Shown here: piece after piece, positions 30,075 to 38,542 of the stretch
How the letters are laid out: each line of letters opens with the position of its first letter
Numbering within the stretch: position 1 is the first letter of the stretch
Translations under genes and position numbers: made by a program
Notes under the pieces: generated by a model
Database searches by the model: none
What the model was told of the DNA's origin: nothing
What the model saw: only the letters and a program-made list of their open reading frames with translations
From: Acidimicrobiia bacterium
GTDB lineage: Bacteria; Actinomycetota; Acidimicrobiia; Spongiisociales; ZC4RG35
Direction: 5' to 3'
NCBI GenBank assembly: GCA_050742015.1
Contig: JBOGEV010000118.1
Coordinates: 3,962-67,961, forward strand
Length of the DNA: 64,000 bases

Positions 30075-33000
30075 GTGAGCGTGTCTCGGGAGGGGAATCC
30101 CAAATTGGGAACAGAGTCCGCGCCTGGCGCGGCTTTTCGCGACAATTCCGATCCGGGTGATGAGGGTTCCGACGCGCGGTTGCGGGTCTTCGTCTCATCC
30201 ACTCTGGGCGAGCTGAGATCGGAGCGGGAAGCCGCCAACTCGGCGATCAAGAGCCTCCGTCTGGTGCCGACCGGCGTCGATCTCGGAGGCCAGTTCGAAA
30301 AAGCCGTCGCCTCACCGGAAACCTCTGACGTCTTCGTGGGCATCTACTGGCAGTCCTACGGATGGGTTGGCGAGGACAGTCCCCGGTCGGACTTGGAGAG
30401 GGACTACGACCACAGCACCGGCCTGCCCAGGCTGATCTACGTCAAGGGCCCGGCCGGAGATCGAGACGAGGGTCTGCAACGGCTGCTCTCGCGCATCGGC
30501 CAGGACGAGCACGCGGCGATGCGCTCCTTCGAATCACCAGGTGAGCTTGCCGAGATGATGGTCGAGGACCTCGCCGGCCTGATGACCGACCACTTTCCGG
30601 CATTCGACGACCAGCCGGGATCTCTTCCGCTGGGGACCCTGACCTTCATGTTCGGGGACATCGTCGGCTCGACCTCCCTCGTCGAGCGTCTCCAGGGCGA
30701 CTACGCAGAGGTCCTCTCCGGCTATCACGAGACGGTCGCCGAGGCCAATCGGAGCAATGGCGGGACCGTCCTCGATCTCGAGGGGGAGCGCGTCTTCAGC
30801 GTCTTCCAGGATGCCTTCGAAGGGTTGAGCGCCGCCGTCGAGATCCAGACGTCGCTCGCCGAACGGGAGTGGCCCCAGGCCGCCCAGATCCGGTCCCGAC
30901 TCGGACTGCACACCGGGACCGCCCGCCTCGGATCGGGCGGGTACGTGGGCCTCGACGTCCATCGCGCATCGCGGGTCGCCGCCACGGGTCATGGAGGGCA
31001 GATAGTGATCTCGGCGCCGGTCAGGGAATTGGTGGAGGGCCGCGTCGAAGACGTCGGATGGCGCATCAAGGAACTGGGCTCGTTCGCCCTCAAGGGCCTG
31101 TCCCGGGCGGAGAAGCTGTTCCAGGTCGAAGCTCCCGGGCTCGAGACCGACTTCCCACCCCCCCGGGCCCGCTCGACGATCCGGGTTCGGCTGCCCTCAT
31201 CACAGGCCAGTCTCGTCGGCCGGGAGAAGGAATTGGCCGAGTTGGTCGACATGCTGGGACAGGCCCACGTGCGCCTAGGCACCATCATCGGACCGGGTGG
31301 CATCGGAAAGACTCGCCTCGCCCTTTCGGCGGCTGAAGTGCTCTCCCCTTCGTTTCCCGACGGTGTGTACTTCGTCAACCTGGCCCCGCTCACCGAGGCG
31401 AGCCAGGTCCTCCATGCCATTGGTGACGCCGCCGGCATCCCCATCGAGGGCGATCCGATCGACGCCCTGTCCAGCGAGTTCCAGGACCAGCAGGTCCTCC
31501 TCCTGATCGACAACTTCGAGCATGTGGTCGCCGCCGGTCCGGACATCGGGGAGCTCCTCGGCCGCAGTCCGGGGCTGAAGGCCCTGGCCACCAGCCGGGT
31601 GCCTCTACGGATCATGAGCGAATACGAATATCCCCTCGAACCGCTCGGGCTGCCCCCCATCGGGTCGGATCGGGTGGAGTCGGTCTCCACATCCGACGCG
31701 GTGCGCCTGTTCATCGAACGTGCCCTCGCCGTGATCCCTGGTTTCTCGATCGACGAGGAGAACGCCTCCCCGGTCGCTTCGATCGTTCGCATCGTGGACG
31801 GGCTTCCCCTCGCCATTGAATTGGCCGCCGCTCGTCTGCGCATGCTGAGCCCATGGGCGCTGTCGGAGCGCCTCACCAAGTCGCTCGACGCTCTCGGCGC
31901 CGGTGCCGCCGATGTCCCCAGCCGCCAGCGCACCCTGGAAGCAGCCATCGACTGGAGCTATCAGCTCTTGACCCGTGAGGAGCAGACCCTGTTCGCCCGG
32001 CTCTGCGTGTTCCAAGGGGGCTTCACGGTCGAGTCGGCGCAGGAGGTCGCGGTTGAAGACGGGGACGCGGTCGACCAGTTGATGGTCCTGGTGGAGAACA
32101 GCCTGGTTCTGCCCGCTCAGGGTGGGGATGGCCGGCTCCGGATGCTGGCGCCGATTCGGGAGTTCGGTCTCCGTCGTCTCCACGAGTCGGGCGAGTACGA
32201 CTGGCTCAAAGACCGACATGCCGGCTATTACGTCCGTCTGGCGGAATCGGTCCTGGACGACCTTCGAGGTGTCAAGCAGGCCGCCGTTGTGGAGCGATTG
32301 GCGGCCGACTGGAACAACATCGACATCGCGGCCGATTGGCTCCTGCAGCAAGGCGACCACGACTCGCTGATCCGGATGGCCTACGGGATGTGGGTTTTTC
32401 TCTGGGTCGGGAACCACATGAAGGACGGTGCTCGATGGCTGGGCGGGGTCACCGCCTACGACGAGATGGATCCGGTGCTCGCCGGGCGCTGCTGGTGGCT
32501 ACGGGGCGGGATCCTCTATGAGATGGGCCAATACGGGAAGTCGAAGCAGGCCATCGACACGGCCCTGGAGATCCTGGAGAGCAACGGAGACATCGACTGC
32601 CACAACTGGGCCGACTTCGTCTCCGCGCTCCTGCTCCCGGCCTTCGACGGCGATCAGGGTGAGGTGTGGCGAAGGGTGGAGGTCTCACTCGCCAGGTTCC
32701 GTGGCCTCGGGGACCGCTGGGGCGAGGGGTACGCCCTGATCGCACTCGGCATATTGGCCGGGTCGACGGGCGATCACGAGACTGCCGAGAAGTATCAGCT
32801 CGAGACTCGCGCCCTGGGCGCCGAGCTCGCCAACGGTGCGCTCATCGGGCTAGCCGAGGCGCAGCTCGGGTTCTCCTACGTTGCCTCAGGGAGGTTCGAC
32901 GAGGCGCGTGACGCTCTGCGGAGGTCGTTCGAGGTCTTCCGGGGCATGAACTACCGGGAGGGCATGTGCTACGCCCTCGAGGCGACAGCTTCGCTTTCGT

Positions 33001-33233
33001 TCGGACAGGGGCGGGCGGAGATGGGCATGATCGCCTTGGGCGCCGCCGAGGACGTCCGCACCAGGATCGGCCTCCATCCCTGGCCCCTGATCAGCTGGGT
33101 GTTCGACTCGCTGACCTCTCTGGCCGATTCCGTCGACGACCCGGCGTTACAGGCCGCCAGGCACGAAGGCCGCCAGATGAACCCCTTCGACGCCGCCGCA
33201 CTGGTCCTCGACGCCGCCCCGGTCCCGGCCTGA
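30075..33233 (+). CDS. STAND NTPase: DUF4062 + class III cyclase-homology domain + NB-ARC ATPase + TPR array
   Basis: 1052 aa. RVFVSSTLGELRSEREA...YWQSYGW (DUF4062-like). FMFGDIVGSTS...GLHTGTA...VHRASRV (cyclase). GPGGIGKTRLA Walker A and VLLLIDNFEH Walker B. C-terminal ~350 aa of TPR-like helices; no HTH. Confidence 0.8.
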   Translation: MSVSREGNPKLGTESAPGAAFRDNSDPGDEGSDARLRVFVSSTLGELRSEREAANSAIKSLRLVPTGVDLGGQFEKAVASPETSDVFVGIYWQSYGWVGEDSPRSDLERDYDHSTGLPRLIYVKGPAGDRDEGLQRLLSRIGQDEHAAMRSFESPGELAEMMVEDLAGLMTDHFPAFDDQPGSLPLGTLTFMFGDIVGSTSLVERLQGDYAEVLSGYHETVAEANRSNGGTVLDLEGERVFSVFQDAFEGLSAAVEIQTSLAEREWPQAAQIRSRLGLHTGTARLGSGGYVGLDVHRASRVAATGHGGQIVISAPVRELVEGRVEDVGWRIKELGSFALKGLSRAEKLFQVEAPGLETDFPPPRARSTIRVRLPSSQASLVGREKELAELVDMLGQAHVRLGTIIGPGGIGKTRLALSAAEVLSPSFPDGVYFVNLAPLTEASQVLHAIGDAAGIPIEGDPIDALSSEFQDQQVLLLIDNFEHVVAAGPDIGELLGRSPGLKALATSRVPLRIMSEYEYPLEPLGLPPIGSDRVESVSTSDAVRLFIERALAVIPGFSIDEENASPVASIVRIVDGLPLAIELAAARLRMLSPWALSERLTKSLDALGAGAADVPSRQRTLEAAIDWSYQLLTREEQTLFARLCVFQGGFTVESAQEVAVEDGDAVDQLMVLVENSLVLPAQGGDGRLRMLAPIREFGLRRLHESGEYDWLKDRHAGYYVRLAESVLDDLRGVKQAAVVERLAADWNNIDIAADWLLQQGDHDSLIRMAYGMWVFLWVGNHMKDGARWLGGVTAYDEMDPVLAGRCWWLRGGILYEMGQYGKSKQAIDTALEILESNGDIDCHNWADFVSALLLPAFDGDQGEVWRRVEVSLARFRGLGDRWGEGYALIALGILAGSTGDHETAEKYQLETRALGAELANGALIGLAEAQLGFSYVASGRFDEARDALRRSFEVFRGMNYREGMCYALEATASLSFGQGRAEMGMIALGAAEDVRTRIGLHPWPLISWVFDSLTSLADSVDDPALQAARHEGRQMNPFDAAALVLDAAPVPA

Positions 33234-34280
33234 TCACATTGTGGCCAGAGCAACGTTGGTGAGGGTGGGCCCGTAGCTCTCGCGGAGGAGTAGCTTGCGT
33301 TCCAGCGCTTCGATGACGGCCGAGGCGAAATCGACCTCGTGGAGGGAGGAGGCGCTGCCCAGCCCTCCCGGGCTGAACACGTTCGCTTCCATCAGCTTGT
33401 CTCCTACGATGTCGAGCCCGACCAGGAACATCCCGTCCTGGATCAGCTTGGGTCGGGCCATCCTCACCACGTCCAGCATCTCGTCGGTCACCTTCACCTT
33501 CTCGGCCTTCCCTCCGACGTGCATATTCGATCGGACATCGTCGTCCTCGTTGACCCGTCGAAAAGCGGCGACCTTCCCGTTCACCTCCAACGGCACCCCG
33601 TTCATCACGAAGAGGCGGACGTCGCCCTTTTCCGCCTCCTTCAGGTACTCCTGGACCACCACATAGCCGTCTCGGGTGATGGTCTCGATGATCTGGTTCA
33701 GGTTTTGACCCTTCTTCCCATCGATGAGGAACACCCCTTGTCCCCCCGACCCCTGCAGTGGCTTGAGCACCGCCCGGCCGCCGAGCTCGCTCACGAACTC
33801 TTTTATGTCGGCATCGGTCCGCGAGATGAGAGTGCGCGGCCGTACTTCCTCGGGAAAGTGCTGGAAGTAGGTCTTGTTGATCGCATCAGCGAGATGCACC
33901 GGGTCGTTGACCACCAACACCCCGGCCGCTGCCGCCAGCTGGCCGAAGAGCACACCGGATGCCTGGGCCCAGGGCCGCTCGGTGGCATCCTCAGCGGGGT
34001 CGTTGCGCAACAACAGGACGTCCAACTCGTCGAGGGTGATCAGCTCAGGCTCCGTCTCCGGGCTCTGGATGTCCTCGAGGAAGCTCTTCAGCGAGCGATA
34101 CGTCTTGTCCTGAGGAGCGCGTGCTCTCGCCCGCACTTCACCGCTGGCGATGTTGGAGAGGTCACCGACACCCATCATCCAGACGTCATGACCCCGCTTC
34201 CGGGCGGCGAGGGCCAGGCGAGTCGTGCTGTACTGGGGGTGTTCGGTCGCGATTTCGTTGACTACCAGCCCGAGTCTCAT
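33234..34280 (-). CDS. Glutathione-synthetase-like (GshB/RimK-type) ATP-grasp ligase
   Basis: 348 aa. VVNDP, LKPLQGSGGQGVF, VVQEYL and RSNMHVGG ATP-grasp blocks. Its stop abuts the STAND gene's stop. Confidence 0.8.
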   Translation of the reverse strand: MRLGLVVNEIATEHPQYSTTRLALAARKRGHDVWMMGVGDLSNIASGEVRARARAPQDKTYRSLKSFLEDIQSPETEPELITLDELDVLLLRNDPAEDATERPWAQASGVLFGQLAAAAGVLVVNDPVHLADAINKTYFQHFPEEVRPRTLISRTDADIKEFVSELGGRAVLKPLQGSGGQGVFLIDGKKGQNLNQIIETITRDGYVVVQEYLKEAEKGDVRLFVMNGVPLEVNGKVAAFRRVNEDDDVRSNMHVGGKAEKVKVTDEMLDVVRMARPKLIQDGMFLVGLDIVGDKLMEANVFSPGGLGSASSLHEVDFASAVIEALERKLLLRESYGPTLTNVALATM

Positions 34281-35431
34281 ACGACGACGCCTCCCAGCTC
34301 CATGACACTCGCACCGTCCCTGATTCGGGTCAGACGATCACGAGCCATTTCCGAGTCCATGAACCGCGGCCGCAGCGGCGGCTCGACCAAAACCCCCCGG
34401 TCGAGGAGGTCGACGACAAGCGGCTCGTCCTCCAAAGATATCTTGCCAACGAGGAGGGAATCGAACCGTCCACCTTCGTGGAGGTAGGCAAGAAGGCGGA
34501 TCAGACCACCCAGATAGAGGGCATCTTTGGTCATCCCACCCGAGCGGTGGGCCCGCATGGTGGTCATGAAGGCCAGGTGTCGCCCGGAACCGTGTTTTCT
34601 CAGGAGGTCGTAGGTGTCCGCGAACCGGGCTCGGTCGCTCACCGACTGGGCGGCCACGACGCGCAGCGCGAGGACGCGGAGTCTTTGCGGCCTGAGCCCT
34701 CCGCTCAGATGCTCGGCCAGAACCCCGAGCGACTCTTGGGTCTCCTCGTATCCGGCCAGGCCGAGGGAGAGCATCCGGATCGGCTGTGCGCTCCCGTTGA
34801 CATAGGTCAGGACGTGGATCCCGATCTCGTGTTGGAGCAGTTGCTCGACCCGGCCGACGGCGATGGTGGTGTCGGCGCCGATGAAAAGGTCGCCGTTCTC
34901 CACCATCACCCCGGCGGCCGTGTCGCTGATGTGGACCAGCGCCGTCAACTCGGGGAACAGAGCCCGATAGTGGTCCAACTCCCGATTGGCCAAAGTGGCC
35001 AGCCTCTCTGACGCAACGAATTCCCTGGACCGTCTTCCCGGAGGTATCTCCTCGAGGATCTGATGGGCGAGGTCCAGCAGAGTCTTCTCGACATGCCCGT
35101 ACTTCTCCACGGCCGCGAGGAGGAAGTGCTCGGTGTTCCGGCTCTCGAGCAGTTCGAGCCGACGCTCCAACTCACGGTGCATGCCCCGCATCATGTGGAT
35201 GAGAACGGGGTCGGACGCCTCCTCGGGGTTGACCTGTTCCAACTCCCTGGCCATGGCGTCGAGGTCGGGAAGGTCGGCGTAGGTGAACTCCGGGTCATCC
35301 GTCTCGCCGGCGAGATAGGCCCCGGCCATGTCGGGCACATTGGTGGGCGTGAGGAGCCGAAGCATCGGGAGGAGGCCGCAGATCTCGCTGAGCCGACGGT
35401 CGAGGGCCAGGTCGACATCATCGACGCTCAT
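34277..35431 (-). CDS. DUF1704 / QEGLA-motif protein (zincin-like putative carboxypeptidase)
   Basis: ATG at 35431 (ATGA overlap with the upstream stop); 384 aa. HEIGIH (HExxH) and TQESLGVLAE (QEGLA-type motif). Confidence 0.75.
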   Translation of the reverse strand: MSVDDVDLALDRRLSEICGLLPMLRLLTPTNVPDMAGAYLAGETDDPEFTYADLPDLDAMARELEQVNPEEASDPVLIHMMRGMHRELERRLELLESRNTEHFLLAAVEKYGHVEKTLLDLAHQILEEIPPGRRSREFVASERLATLANRELDHYRALFPELTALVHISDTAAGVMVENGDLFIGADTTIAVGRVEQLLQHEIGIHVLTYVNGSAQPIRMLSLGLAGYEETQESLGVLAEHLSGGLRPQRLRVLALRVVAAQSVSDRARFADTYDLLRKHGSGRHLAFMTTMRAHRSGGMTKDALYLGGLIRLLAYLHEGGRFDSLLVGKISLEDEPLVVDLLDRGVLVEPPLRPRFMDSEMARDRLTRIRDGASVMELGGVVV

Positions 35432-36204
35432 GCCAGCTCCCAGGCGCGCCCGACCGGCTCCGCCGAGGCGAGGAGGGCATCTCCCAGCTCCTCCAAGAGA
35501 GTCGAGTCGATCCTCCCGGTCCACTCATCCATGAACACCTTCTTCATCTCGATGGCCAGGGCACAACCCACGTCGCCGTAGTTTTCGTGCACCCAACGAG
35601 CGACCTGCCGCCCCTCGAAGCGCACGTTCTCTCTGGCGTCGAGGGGAGTCCCCGCAACGGTCGCGCCTCTCATGCTCTCGATGAAGACATCTGCGACACC
35701 CTTCCACTTGTCGGGCAGCGAGCCGGTGCCGAGGTTGACGACCGGGCTCTCCTCGGCCGGATCCGGCGGGGCCACCGGACCGGCTCGCCGGTGGTTGAAG
35801 GAGTGGAGATCGTAGAGGACGAAGCCGCCGCGCTCGACCACGAGACGATCGAGGACCGAGGCCAGGTCGGAGTAGAAGCGGTCGTAGAGGTCGAGGGATT
35901 CTGCGACATCCTCCTCGGTCGGGGGGCGGCGCCAAATGTCGAGACCCCAAGCATCGGAGGGGCCCATATAGACGGCTTTCTCCCGCTCCCGGTTCAGGTC
36001 GACCTCGAAGCGCGACCGGTGAACCACCACGCTCGGGGCGAAACGCTCGGCGATCGCCCCCGTGTGAGGATCCTCCTCGCGAAGACGCGCGGCGTCGTCC
36101 AGGATGAGCAACCTCGCCAGGCTTGGCCGGAGGTCGTGCCCATTGTGGACCGCGGTGGCGATCACGAGCTCGGTTGCAGGCAGGTTGAAAGAAGCGAATT
36201 CCAT
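35428..36204 (-). CDS. N-formylglutamate amidohydrolase (FGase) family protein
   Basis: ATG at 36204; 258 aa. VHNGH, EVDLNRE and LYDLHSF blocks typical of PF05013-like proteins. Confidence 0.75.
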   Translation of the reverse strand: MEFASFNLPATELVIATAVHNGHDLRPSLARLLILDDAARLREEDPHTGAIAERFAPSVVVHRSRFEVDLNREREKAVYMGPSDAWGLDIWRRPPTEEDVAESLDLYDRFYSDLASVLDRLVVERGGFVLYDLHSFNHRRAGPVAPPDPAEESPVVNLGTGSLPDKWKGVADVFIESMRGATVAGTPLDARENVRFEGRQVARWVHENYGDVGCALAIEMKKVFMDEWTGRIDSTLLEELGDALLASAEPVGRAWELA

Positions 36205-36334
36205 CGGTTGGGGACAATTACCCGTCCCCGATCGACCCAAAACGAACAGCGGGCCTCGTGACTTCCGCGACCAGTGAGCCACAGGCCTGGCGGGCGGAAC
36301 CAATTTCGGCTCGCCCAGAACCAGAGCAGCCCTT

Positions 36335-37546
36335 TCAGGGGCGAAGGGCGACGACCCCCGAGTGGTACCCCACGAACAGGGTCGCCTCTGCTGTCGCTCC
36401 GGTGTTCGAGTTCATCGCGTAGAGCATCCCGTTCGACGGTCGGTAGGCCCCGACGGTGTCATCGCCGTCGCCATCCCAGTCGCCTGCGACGAGGAAGTCA
36501 CCGGAGTTGCCAAACGTGAACTGGCCGTCGGCCAACCCGTGGCTGTGAGAGTTCCGGTAGTAGACGAGACCGGCCTCCTCCCGGTGCAATCCGATCGTGT
36601 CGATCCCATCCCCGTCGAAGTCGTGCACGAACGGCTTGTCTCCTTCCATTCCGAAAGTGAACGAGTGGTGCGCGGTCCCAAGTCCCCGGTCGGCCGCACC
36701 GATCTCGTTGATGATGTAGAAGCGAGCTTCCGAGGGTCGGTGGATCGACACGGTGTCGCAGCCGTCGCCATCGAAGTCGCCTGCGATCGGGAAGTCGCCG
36801 GGATTCCCGAAGTAATACGTTATGTCGGCGAGCCCTTCCGTGTTCGCATTGCTGAGATACACGTAGCCGTCGGAACGTCGGTAGAGACCGAGGGTCTCGA
36901 CGCCGTCACAGTTCCAATCCCCAGCGAACGCCACATCGCCAGGATTTCCGTAGTAGAAGGCTGAGACCTGGCGGGTAGAGGCAAGCTCGTCCCACAGGTC
37001 GAACCTGCCTCCGGCGTCCTGAAAGGCGACGGTGTCACAGACGGCACCCACTGGACAGAGACTCGACGCGCTGGTCCCGGATGTGTCGGCCGCGGTCGTG
37101 CTCGCGTCCCTCTTCATGAAGACGACGGTCACGTAGAGGTATCCATCCCTGCTTTGAGTTCCGATCCCGACGTAGTTGTAGTCGGCGAGGATGTTGTTCC
37201 TATGAGCAGGCGAATTCATGAAGGCTTGGTGGAGTGAGGTAGGGCTCTGGCCGCGGCCGACGTTTTCGCCGATCTTCTCCCAGCCTTGGCCGCCAGCCGC
37301 CCCGAGCTCCGCGGAGCTGGAGTGATACAACTCGCCGGCGTCAATCATGCCTTGAGTGTGCAAGCGGGCATGCGATTCGAGGCCATCGTCAATTTGAAGC
37401 AATCCGAGGCCGTTGGCCGAGCGCTCGGCATTGATCTTGGCGAGAAACTCGCCCTCGGTATCCGAGTCGGCGACGGCGGCGCCCTCTCCGAACAGGACCA
37501 TCGTCGCCACCAGTGACAACACGACCCAGCGCCTTGTTCCATGCAT
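36335..37546 (-). CDS. Secreted CAP/SCP domain protein with four FG-GAP/VCBS-like repeats
   Basis: 403 aa. N-terminal CAP domain paralogous to 13235..13927. Then 4 repeats containing GD(W/F)(D/N)(G/C)DG.(D/E)T.G..R. Confidence 0.85.
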   Translation of the reverse strand: MHGTRRWVVLSLVATMVLFGEGAAVADSDTEGEFLAKINAERSANGLGLLQIDDGLESHARLHTQGMIDAGELYHSSSAELGAAGGQGWEKIGENVGRGQSPTSLHQAFMNSPAHRNNILADYNYVGIGTQSRDGYLYVTVVFMKRDASTTAADTSGTSASSLCPVGAVCDTVAFQDAGGRFDLWDELASTRQVSAFYYGNPGDVAFAGDWNCDGVETLGLYRRSDGYVYLSNANTEGLADITYYFGNPGDFPIAGDFDGDGCDTVSIHRPSEARFYIINEIGAADRGLGTAHHSFTFGMEGDKPFVHDFDGDGIDTIGLHREEAGLVYYRNSHSHGLADGQFTFGNSGDFLVAGDWDGDGDDTVGAYRPSNGMLYAMNSNTGATAEATLFVGYHSGVVALRP

Positions 37547-37582
37547 CCATTGGATATCGGCTCTGGCGCCGAATCCCTTGAG

Positions 37583-38542
37583 ATGGCGCCGGAGGTGATA
37601 TCACCTCGTCTGGGCAGATCAACCCCGACGGCGAGTGGAGTCACACCGGCCACTACCGTTGCCGTGGTGCAGCGACCCGATTGGTTCCTCGAAGACCAGT
37701 ACCCCTTCGAGAGTCATTGGCAGGAGATCGACGGGGCACAGGTCCACTACCTCGACGAGGGTGAAGGCCCTGTGCTGCTCATGCTGCACGGCAATCCGAC
37801 CTGGTCATTCCTCTACCGGCGGATGGTGCCCTATTTATCGGACCGGTTCCGCTGCATCGCCATCGACTACCCCGGGTTCGGCTTGTCCAAGGCGAGAGAC
37901 GGGTTCGGGTACACCCCGGCCGAGCACGCCGAGGTGGTGGGCAAGTTCATCGATGCGCTGGATCTGCAGGGCTACACCCCGGTGATGCAGGATTGGGGTG
38001 GCCCGATCGGCCTGGCCACCGCCCTGGACCGACAGGACCGGGTGAAGGCGATGATCATCGGAAACACATGGGCGTGGCCTCGCACCGACAACGTGACACA
38101 ACGATTCTCCTCCGCGCTTGGCGAGGGGAGAACCAGTGAATTCCTGGTCGACCGGGCCAATGTCTTCGTCAACGTGTTCGTGCGAAGGGCGATGCGTCGC
38201 CGGGCGCCGAGCGGTCGAGAGATGGCCATGTGGCGAGGGCCCTTCCCAGACCAGGAATCCAGGCTCCCGATTCGAGTCTTCCCCCGGGAGCTGACCGGAT
38301 CGGCCGACTTCCTCAAATCCGTGGAGGATCGCCTCGCCGAGATCGCCGACAAGCCGACCCTGCTGTTCTGGGCCGACCAGGACCCGGCGTTCCGGGGGGT
38401 CGAGAAGCGGCGCTGGGAGTCGATCCTCACCAACCGCACCAGCTACGACCTGCGTCACGCCGGCCACTACTGGCAGGACGACGCCGGCCCCGAAGCCGCC
38501 CTCATGATCCGCTACTGGTGGGACCAGACGGGGCTGAATTGA
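37583..38542 (+). CDS. Haloalkane dehalogenase-type alpha/beta hydrolase
   Basis: Start uncertain (ATG 37583; the track start 37541 overlaps the divergent gene). HGNPTWSFLYR, QDWGGPIG (Asp nucleophile) and AGHYWQDD (His) motifs. Confidence 0.8.
   Translation: MAPEVISPRLGRSTPTASGVTPATTVAVVQRPDWFLEDQYPFESHWQEIDGAQVHYLDEGEGPVLLMLHGNPTWSFLYRRMVPYLSDRFRCIAIDYPGFGLSKARDGFGYTPAEHAEVVGKFIDALDLQGYTPVMQDWGGPIGLATALDRQDRVKAMIIGNTWAWPRTDNVTQRFSSALGEGRTSEFLVDRANVFVNVFVRRAMRRRAPSGREMAMWRGPFPDQESRLPIRVFPRELTGSADFLKSVEDRLAEIADKPTLLFWADQDPAFRGVEKRRWESILTNRTSYDLRHAGHYWQDDAGPEAALMIRYWWDQTGLN

Follow-up and report, generated by a model that had tools for sequence, protein, structure and literature searches.

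The window, a stretch of 64,000 nucleotides from a soil Acidimicrobiia genome (97.9% complete), contains three adjoining genes that encode an N-formylglutamate-amidohydrolase-fold (FGase-fold) enzyme, a DUF1704 peptidase (the Pfam family is at present named 'MATCAP') and a GshB-like ATP-grasp ligase. The locus raises the question of what a ligase translationally coupled to two hydrolases makes and breaks. The earlier note on this DNA had read the genes as a make-and-break module for a small peptide or amino-acid conjugate without a characterised pathway. In line with this, the literature searched yielded no characterised pathway for the trio and no functional study of DUF1704/QEGLA proteins.

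Table 1. Coordinates of the three genes, their junctions and the adjoining spacer in the window.
Feature	Position	Strand	Basis or remark
FGase-fold metal amidohydrolase, 258 aa, operon gene 1	35428..36204	-	ATG at 36204 taken as start
MATCAP/DUF1704 gluzincin, putative carboxypeptidase, 384 aa, short form	34277..35431	-	ORF and PF08014
GshB-like ATP-grasp ligase, 348 aa, NCBIfam subfamily PRK12458	33234..34280	-	ORF and NF009110
ATGA stop/start overlap, FGase/MATCAP genes	35428..35431	-	direct sequence reading
ATGA stop/start overlap, MATCAP/ligase genes	34277..34280	-	direct sequence reading
Spacer 5' of FGase start, 130 bases, presumed promoter and 5' leader	36205..36334	-	between CAP-domain gene stop and FGase ATG
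Abutting stops, ligase (33236-33234, -) and convergent STAND gene (33231-33233, +)	33231..33236	.	TGA/TCA at 33236-33231

The open reading frames and direct reading of the sequence confirm the arrangement described in the earlier note, three minus-strand genes joined by two ATGA overlaps (Table 1). The operon also ends stop-to-stop against the STAND gene as had been claimed, and the terminator scan detected no terminator-like hairpin between the two stops; the hairpins that it reported are all intragenic. The spacer at 36205..36334 has no sigma-70 consensus promoter in a sigma-70 scan and no Rfam family, and the only Rfam match in the scan of positions 32500-38000 was a chance match to a miRNA model inside coding sequence. 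Both neighbouring genes were rejected as parts of the module: the upstream CAP-domain gene occurs in one of the 70 related loci, and the downstream STAND gene is kept as a neighbour only in ~19 close relatives. The abutting stops of the ligase and STAND genes reflect synteny specific to the lineage and lie outside the module.

The conserved-neighbourhood check showed that the trio co-occurs widely outside the source genome, in Actinomycetota, Gemmatimonadota, Bacteroidota and Alpha- and Gammaproteobacteria. The gene order FGase-MATCAP-ligase is the same in 63 of 70 related loci from four phyla, and six of the exceptions are contig-end truncations. The 4-base overlap between the MATCAP and ligase genes is present in 51 of 62 related loci. 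Among 151 Actinomycetota genomes, the PRK12458-type ligase is found in six, in all of them (6/6) adjoining MATCAP and FGase genes; the 142 genomes that lack MATCAP have no such ligase. The MATCAP gene itself has a patchy, accessory distribution (9/151 genomes). The three genes are one unit. Flanking genes of the trio are wholly different between lineages, and a comparison of 242 flanking ORFs from 45 diverse loci with Pfam revealed no family recurring in more than five of these loci and, in these lineages, no enrichment of mechanosensitive or Mg channels. Thus, the module is self-contained. A co-encoded peptide or protein partner was likewise not found among the 45 loci. M20 and M28 peptidases, ABC transporters and an MFS transporter are occasionally seen near the trio.

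In the Pfam profile search, the ligase matches PF02955 with 164 bits and PF02951 with 51 bits, and it matches NF009110 (PRK12458, named 'glutathione synthetase') over positions 1-349 of 349 with 440.2 bits, above the cut-off of 408. These matches bear out the domain call of a glutathione-synthetase/RimK-like ATP-grasp ligase. The scores lie under the cut-offs of the GshB equivalogs TIGR01380 (198.2 vs. 299.05 bits) and NF003573 (212.5 vs. 272 bits) and of the RimK models TIGR00768 (86.1 vs. 143.4 bits) and NF007764 (56.6 vs. 331 bits). The E. coli GshB structure 1GSA matches over its full length (E = 5.5e-37, ~33% identity), and the GshB-type N-domain is retained. Residues R210, R225, R233, N235, E281 and N283 of GshB correspond to R222, R242, R250, N252, E298 and N300 of the ligase, respectively, all of which are invariant in 66 orthologues. 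From R242 to K258 the ligase has a lid loop of 16 residues, as long as the loop from R225 to R241 in E. coli GshB.

The peptidase matches PF08014 with 246.7 bits (cut-off 27, profile positions 8-361 of 365), which substantiates the claimed DUF1704 membership, and phmmer with the peptidase as query recovered human MATCAP (7Z5G). HEIGIH of the peptidase aligns to HEIGTH of human MATCAP and TQESLG to TEEGLA, placing H201-E202-x3-H206 on HEIGTH and E233 on the second E of TEEGLA. H201, E202, H206 and E233 are invariant in 52 orthologues, and R293, R296, D303 and Y306 are invariant too; HExxxH, the TEEG-type Glu and RxxR...KDxxYL are common to the peptidase and human MATCAP. Of the motifs that had been pointed out, HEIGIH and TQES are indeed present, but the class is HExxxH rather than HExxH, and the peptidase, whose literal motif is Q-E-S-L-G, scores under the cut-off of the TIGR02421 'QEGLA' model (265.7 vs. 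338.65 bits). Mutants have located essential glutamates downstream of HExxxH at E281 in TMCP1 and at E329 and E364 in TMCP2 (PMC10499314). The AF2 model of the peptidase (pLDDT 92.9) gave weak fold matches in Foldseek to M32 carboxypeptidases and ACE2 (TM ~0.45); 7Z5G is absent from the Foldseek results, although phmmer finds it. The peptidase is a putative metallocarboxypeptidase. It is the sole MATCAP-family protein of the genome and a bare catalytic domain, without an N-terminal FGase-like domain. Of the 150 best MATCAP representatives, 109 have a degenerate domain of this kind (hhalign probability 97.6%, E = 4e-12 for the domain assignment) fused to the N-terminal side of the MATCAP domain, which argues for physical coupling of both hydrolase folds.

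The product of the first gene belongs to the N-formylglutamate amidohydrolase family, as had been stated, with 77 bits against PF05013 (cut-off 28.9). The best PDB folds for its AF2 model (pLDDT 94.9) in Foldseek are 2Q7S (TM 0.75, E = 9e-13) and 2ODF, both annotated or predicted as N-formylglutamate amidohydrolases, followed by M14 carboxypeptidases that include the bacterial 4A37 and 4B6Z, which we take to be CCP-like. Residues H20, E43-D45, E67, D69, N71, R72, D132, H134, N137, E219 and K222 are invariant in 47 FGase orthologues. The characterised reaction of the family acts on the small molecule N-formyl-Glu. The enzyme resembles HutG in PF05013 membership and in fold, but it scores only 23.7 bits against the HutG equivalog TIGR02017 (cut-off 278.75), and its gene lies outside the hut cluster. 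The genome encodes no other FGase-family protein. The gene was rejected as the genome's HutG because an arginase-type enzyme adjoins hutU, which is located on another contig, outside the trio locus. No HutF above cut-off was found in the genome, the best HutF-like match having 150 vs. 413 bits.

We tentatively favour, at slightly less than even confidence, the reading that the trio is a self-contained, co-translated cytoplasmic module that would build and dismantle a short acidic glutamate-type peptide or an N-acyl-amino-acid conjugate other than glutathione. The conserved GshB catalytic residues and the lid loop of equal length suggest that the ligase would activate a small acceptor by turning its free alpha-carboxylate into an acyl phosphate, and would then add an amino acid, with Glu or Asp the likeliest. 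Candidate acceptors are an acidic amino acid, a gamma-glutamyl or N-acyl amino acid, or a short peptide. The identity of the added amino acid is a guess by analogy with the Glu-releasing chemistry of FGase, RimK and TMCP2. Judging from its homology to MATCAP/TMCP, carboxypeptidases that take Tyr or Glu off tubulin, the HExxxH metallopeptidase would remove the added C-terminal residue. The FGase-fold enzyme may then split the remaining N-acyl-glutamate-type amide bond, in keeping with the family reaction that converts N-formyl-Glu to formate and Glu. All three enzymes retain intact active sites, and most relatives have an FGase-like domain fused to MATCAP; both observations support the make-and-break reading of the earlier note.

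We infer a small substrate from the GshB N-domain with its 16-residue lid loop, from the fold neighbours 2Q7S and 2ODF together with the N-formyl-Glu reaction of the family, from the lack of a co-encoded partner or recurrent flanking family in the 45 loci, and from the patchy accessory distribution of the module (9/151 genomes). However, the MATCAP-family enzymes characterised so far all act on protein tails (PMC10499314). In addition, to induce a ligase together with two hydrolases that presumably break its product would seem futile unless the activities are controlled post-translationally.

An expression lead comes from RNA-seq of Photobacterium damselae at 1% vs. 3% NaCl, in which a 'glutathione synthase' gene (342 aa) is up 38-fold and an overlapping gene for a QEGLA protein (660 aa) is up 27.5-fold (PMC10308900). 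The authors of that study read the 38-fold induction as glutathione synthesis. The Photobacterium locus has another gene order, a long-form peptidase and no FGase gene in the published table (PMC10308900). This one study of one distant gammaproteobacterium suggests that the module responds to low salinity.

The main rival, which we consider possible but doubtful, is a reversible C-terminal tailing, in which the ligase would extend the C-terminus of a cellular protein encoded elsewhere by Glu or another residue, the MATCAP-like enzyme would trim the tail and the FGase-fold enzyme would remove the last or branch-point residue. The trio would then be a counterpart of RimK/RimB on ribosomal protein S6 or of TTL/TTLL vs. 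MATCAP/CCP on tubulin. All characterised MATCAP-family enzymes are indeed protein-tail carboxypeptidases (PMC10499314), with catalytic and neighbouring motifs common to the peptidase and human MATCAP. Moreover, the nearest folds of the FGase-fold enzyme after the FGases are M14 carboxypeptidases, and RimK, which is related to the ligase, adds a tail to a protein and has a co-transcribed peptidase as its antagonist (PMC11957051). However, a candidate target is not co-encoded and flanking families do not recur in the 45 loci, and the patchiness of the module would leave a universal target unmodified in most relatives. Tailing is also at odds with the GshB-type N-domain and closing loop of the ligase, which in GshB enclose a dipeptide, and with the canonical RimK system already present in the genome. 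That the trio is a bacterial write-and-erase system for protein C-terminal tails, a forerunner of the tubulin tyrosination/glutamylation code switched by ionic strength or osmolarity, seems unlikely.

In the tubulin cycle (TTL/TTLL vs. MATCAP/TMCP1, TMCP2 and CCP), as in the trio, a MATCAP-family HExxxH gluzincin stands against an ATP-grasp ligase; the trio peptidase aligns with human MATCAP at the catalytic Glu and at the second essential Glu, and the trio has a second hydrolase of carboxypeptidase-type fold, as eukaryotes have CCPs. However, the trio ligase is of GshB type rather than TTL type, the second hydrolase has the FGase fold and is not a true M14 CCP, the peptidase is a bare 384-aa catalytic domain, and bacteria are without a tubulin tail. 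RimK and RimB, with RimA, carry out the poly-alpha-glutamylation of S6 and its removal, and RimK also makes free poly-alpha-glutamate (PMC11957051). This system likewise co-transcribes an ATP-grasp alpha-L-glutamate ligase with an antagonistic peptidase, and the RimK operon of the source genome, which carries a retropepsin-like gene and an AstE/AspA-like deacylase gene, has the same logic of a ligase with two hydrolases as the trio. The presence of this canonical operon elsewhere in the genome, with the true RimK (421.6 bits) on another contig, led to the rejection of the trio ligase as RimK. The trio ligase further differs in its GshB N-domain and its score on the RimK model (86 vs. 143 bits), and the trio peptidases are a gluzincin and an FGase fold vs. 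the retropepsin of the RimK system.

Salvage or catabolism of an imported or wall-derived gamma-glutamyl or D-Glu peptide, which the hydrolases would degrade while the ligase re-used a fragment in the manner of murein-peptide ligases, is rather improbable. The excess of hydrolases over ligase (2:1) would fit such a role, the FGase-fold relatives include the phage poly-gamma-glutamate hydrolase PghP, and M20/M28 peptidases and ABC and MFS transporters lie occasionally nearby. However, linkage to a transporter or binding protein is inconsistent (at most 5 of 45 loci), an N-terminal hydrophobic signal-like segment was seen by eye in none of the three translations, and the tight translational coupling of ligase and peptidase suggests one common molecule rather than a linear breakdown.

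A genuine GshB, or a synthetase of a glutathione-like thiol tripeptide with the hydrolases acting in thiol-peptide turnover, is highly improbable. The public names of the ligase homologues, all of them 'glutathione synthase' or 'glutathione synthetase', would agree with it, as would the full-length match to E. coli GshB, with which the ligase shares the GSH-S_N and GSH-S_ATP architecture, every catalytic residue and the lid-loop length. The genome also encodes a YbdK-family ligase, its sole GCS2 match (NF010039, 509 bits), which may be weakly active as a Glu-Cys ligase. However, gshA (PF04262) was not found in the 97.9%-complete source genome or in five other trio genomes, and the GshB equivalog scores are under cut-off; glutathione synthesis by the trio was rejected on these grounds. 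Unlike E. coli GshB, the ligase falls in PRK12458 and is coupled to two hydrolases, and in the phylum sample its type occurs only beside MATCAP genes. Actinomycetota, moreover, generally use mycothiol or ergothioneine and not glutathione. Fortuitous adjacency or inherited synteny of functionally unrelated genes is effectively refuted by the co-occurrence data, with order and overlaps the same in four phyla amid wholly different flanking genes, the ligase strictly nested in MATCAP-bearing genomes and an FGase-like domain fused to MATCAP in most relatives.

For the favoured module of peptide or conjugate synthesis and breakdown, the mammalian N-acetyl-aspartyl-glutamate (NAAG) cycle serves as the nearest working model, with RimK/RimB second. 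In the NAAG cycle, RIMKLA/RIMKLB adds Glu to an N-acyl amino acid, glutamate carboxypeptidase II/III removes the Glu and aspartoacylase deacylates. The trio has the same three-enzyme logic of a ligase, a metallocarboxypeptidase and a carboxypeptidase-fold deacylase. However, the families differ (M28 vs. MATCAP, and AstE/AspA vs. FGase), and the two systems are alike in their logic without being homologous.

That MATCAP is an enzyme has been recognised only since 2022-2023. With the peptidase locked to a ligase and a second hydrolase, the trio offers a defined three-protein system for finding the ancestral substrate of the MATCAP family. The analysis also flags a systematic misannotation, in that ligase homologues are named glutathione synthetase even in genomes where gshA was not found. 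Should the product prove to be an acidic oligopeptide linked to salinity, the module would be a new element of bacterial ion/osmotic homeostasis.

The three minus-strand open reading frames lie in the window exactly where the earlier note had located them. The ligase and STAND genes run stop to stop without a terminator, as was also read there; the two stops touch, and a consensus scan found no terminator-like hairpin between these convergent genes. The same kind of scan found no promoter-like sites in 32900-37800, and an Rfam scan around the trio returned nothing credible.

Coordinates of the trio and of related features in the window and elsewhere
Feature	Position	Strand	Remark
FGase-fold gene (gene 1)	36204..35428	minus	258 aa, given ATG at 36204
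MATCAP peptidase gene (gene 2)	35431..34277	minus	384 aa
GshB-like ligase gene (gene 3)	34280..33234	minus	348 aa
ATGA stop/start overlaps	35431-35428; 34280-34277	minus	FGase/peptidase and peptidase/ligase junctions
Ligase stop codon	33236-33234		touches stop 33231-33233 of the convergent 1052-aa STAND gene
STAND gene (DUF4062-cyclase-NB-ARC-TPR)	30075-33233	plus	convergent to the trio
CAP/SCP-domain gene	36335-37546	minus	between the trio and a divergent alpha/beta hydrolase gene
RimK operon of the genome	contig C70, L072:3-2300	minus	outside the window
Predicted FGase-like N-terminal regions of long-form peptidases	L047:5209-6090; L054:5323-6120		109 of the best 150 representatives (P0125-P0272)

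Pfam profile searches showed that the ligase is composed of GSH-S_N and GSH-S_ATP domains. Its score exceeds the cut-off of NF009110 (PRK12458; 440 vs. 408 bits) and falls below those of two GshB equivalogs (198 vs. 299 and 212 vs. 272) and of the RimK model (86 vs. 143). The full-length alignment with E. coli GshB (1GSA, E = 5.5e-37) places R222, R242, R250, N252, E298, N300 and G177-G180 on R210, R225, R233, N235, E281, N283 and the Gly-rich loop, which we take to be the key elements of the E. coli enzyme; none of these ligase residues varies across 66 orthologues. The two enzymes also agree in the length of the closing loop.

The peptidase matches PF08014 (once DUF1704, now 'MATCAP') with 247 bits and stays under the TIGR02421 'QEGLA' cut-off (266 vs. 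339). Alignment with human MATCAP (7Z5G) places HEIGIH on HEIGTH and TQESLG on TEEGLA. The former had been labelled HExxH; it is an HExxxH motif, an unusual spacing reported for MATCAP/TMCP enzymes, of which the TMCP1 E281A and the TMCP2 E329A and E364A mutants are inactive (PMC10499314). In this protein the 'QEGLA' motif has the sequence QESLG. Across 52 orthologues, H201, E202, H206 and E233 do not vary, nor do R293, R296, D303 and Y306 further downstream. The AlphaFold2 model is confident (pLDDT 92.9), with weak Foldseek matches (TM ~0.45) to a Colwellia protein, M32 carboxypeptidases and ACE2. Human MATCAP (7Z5G/7Z5H/7Z6S) is absent from its 106 PDB matches; phmmer and Pfam nonetheless assign the family.

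The first gene product matches PF05013 (77 bits) and lies far under the HutG equivalog TIGR02017 (23.7 vs. a cut-off of 278.75). H20, the REEDP block, E67-D69-N71-R72, D132-x-H134 and E219 are kept in 47 orthologues. Its confident AlphaFold2 model (pLDDT 94.9) is nearest in Foldseek to the solved FGases 2Q7S (TM 0.75) and 2ODF, followed by M14 carboxypeptidases, including the bacterial and presumably CCP-like 4A37 and 4B6Z, and by succinylglutamate desuccinylase.

The coupling that the earlier note read from this one genome recurs widely. Scanning one genome per species yielded 70 loci with relatives of the peptidase, 63 of which carry all three genes in the same order; the 70 loci span Acidimicrobiia, other Actinomycetota, Gemmatimonadota, Bacteroidota and Rhodobacterales. 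Of the remaining seven, six are truncated at the edge of a contig and one (L050) is a true solo peptidase locus. Peptidase and ligase genes retain their 4-base overlap in 51 of 62 loci. Of 151 evenly sampled Actinomycetota genomes, nine contain a MATCAP-family gene and six a PRK12458-type ligase, which always directly adjoins the MATCAP gene and the only FGase gene of the genome; none of the 142 sampled genomes without a MATCAP gene has such a ligase. Three genomes of the sample (G091, G095 and G136) have a different, solo MATCAP type. Thus, the module is patchy and accessory yet strictly linked. The trio was also found on Rhizobiaceae chromids, including that of Shinella, where its genes carry the names N-formylglutamate amidohydrolase, QEGLA motif protein and glutathione synthetase, and on S. 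meliloti pSymB.

Solo MATCAP genes without an adjoining ligase occur further on Pseudoalteromonas pPBSW1 (L080), beside betIBA-BCCT glycine-betaine genes, and in Vibrio sp. HDW18 (L079), after LysR and DUF413 (maoP) genes, an arrangement shared by Photobacterium. In several MAG contigs (L022-L025, L066-L070) frameshifts split the peptidase gene or merge it with its neighbour, most likely as indel errors of long-read assembly rather than as pseudogenes.

The surroundings of the trio are conserved only among close relatives, in the order nrdJ, sometimes an alpha/beta hydrolase, the trio and the convergent STAND gene. The latter is convergent across this clade (~19 close relatives, 0-28 bases between stops) and in no distant lineage. 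The CAP/SCP protein, whose C-terminal repeats are enriched in Gly, Asp and aromatic residues, has a gene counterpart upstream of the trio in only one of the 70 related loci (L017), which suggests that its gene was inserted recently. Beyond this clade the trio has entirely different neighbours; a Pfam scan of 242 flanking ORFs (45 diverse loci) found no family in more than five loci and no enrichment of mechanosensitive or magnesium channels, and no precursor peptide or target protein was found encoded with the trio. The module appears self-contained.

Database searches returned 2244 relatives of the peptidase among 1.84 billion representatives. Among the best 150 of these, 109 are of a long form (~600-670 aa) and 27 of a short form like that of the window. 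Pfam gave no match to the extra N-terminal region (~250 aa) of the long form. BLASTP of this region against the adjacent FGase (E = 5e-7) and a profile-profile comparison (97.6% probability, E = 4e-12) identify it as an FGase-like domain that has diverged. E-x-W stands in place of the D-x-H metal motif, which probably makes it a non-catalytic pseudo-enzyme domain. In one close relative (P0125, 667 aa, sharing 52% identity with the peptidase of the window), the FGase domain (SRFEVDLNR, DVHSYNHR) seems intact and continues in frame into a short-form MATCAP domain. The protein looks like a real fusion, although a single-base assembly error within the ATGA overlap could also produce it. The existence of such FGase-like/peptidase fusions argues that the two hydrolase folds act together physically.

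Three familiar roles were ruled out within the genome. Glutathione synthesis fails as no gshA is present in the genome (97.9% complete), the only GCS2 protein being a YbdK-family carboxylate-amine ligase. The RimK role is taken by a canonical RimK (NF007764, 422 bits) on another contig, flanked by genes for a RimB-like retropepsin (122 bits, under its cut-off) and for a zinc deacylase similar to AstE/AspA/DoeB; this is a second operon of a ligase and two hydrolases, one of the N-acyl-amino-acid amidohydrolase type. The HutG role was rejected as well: hutU is found on a different contig, next to an arginase-type enzyme, and no HutF match above cut-off was found in the genome.

All three enzymes deal with the amide bond beside a free alpha-carboxylate. 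Ligases of the GshB/RimK class extend a C-terminal carboxylate, MATCAP enzymes take off C-terminal Tyr or Glu, and FGase frees Glu from N-acyl-Glu. In the simplest scheme, the ligase would add an acidic residue onto a small acceptor, the peptidase would take it off again, and the FGase-fold enzyme would split the remainder. This scheme mirrors the logic of the NAAG cycle in mammals, where RIMKLA/B, glutamate carboxypeptidase II and aspartoacylase take the corresponding parts. A small substrate is the favoured reading, held at somewhat under even chances, because the ligase still has the N-domain and lid loop of GshB, the known FGase-family chemistry acts on a small molecule, no target is co-encoded and the distribution is patchy. 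Tailing of protein C termini is a less likely alternative, supported by every characterised MATCAP enzyme having a protein tail as its substrate. The two remaining readings are less likely still: a salvage route is improbable, and true glutathione-type synthesis very improbable, since gshA was also not found in five other trio-bearing genomes, though every source name returned for the ligase homologues is 'glutathione synthase'.

The literature searched yielded no functional work on the trio in bacteria. For Pseudomonas aeruginosa, PA3697 has been cited as modulating fhp expression (PMC8070244), from which the NCBIfam name presumably derives. RNA-seq of Photobacterium damselae at 1% vs. 3% NaCl showed a 'glutathione synthase' (A0J47_RS17020, 342 aa) up 38.4-fold at 1% and the overlapping QEGLA protein RS17025 (660 aa) up 27.5-fold, both ranking with the strongest responses to low salt; the authors interpreted the former as glutathione synthesis (PMC10308900). 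RS17025 has the size of a long-form peptidase, and gene size and partner gene show that the pair belongs to the ligase-peptidase module and not to glutathione synthesis.

The window contributes an Acidimicrobiia trio whose peptidase is of the minority short form, a test of co-occurrence with clean nesting inside a single phylum, the exclusion of GshB, RimK and HutG roles within the same genome, evidence for a degenerate FGase as the N-domain of the long form, and a link to the published low-salinity induction.
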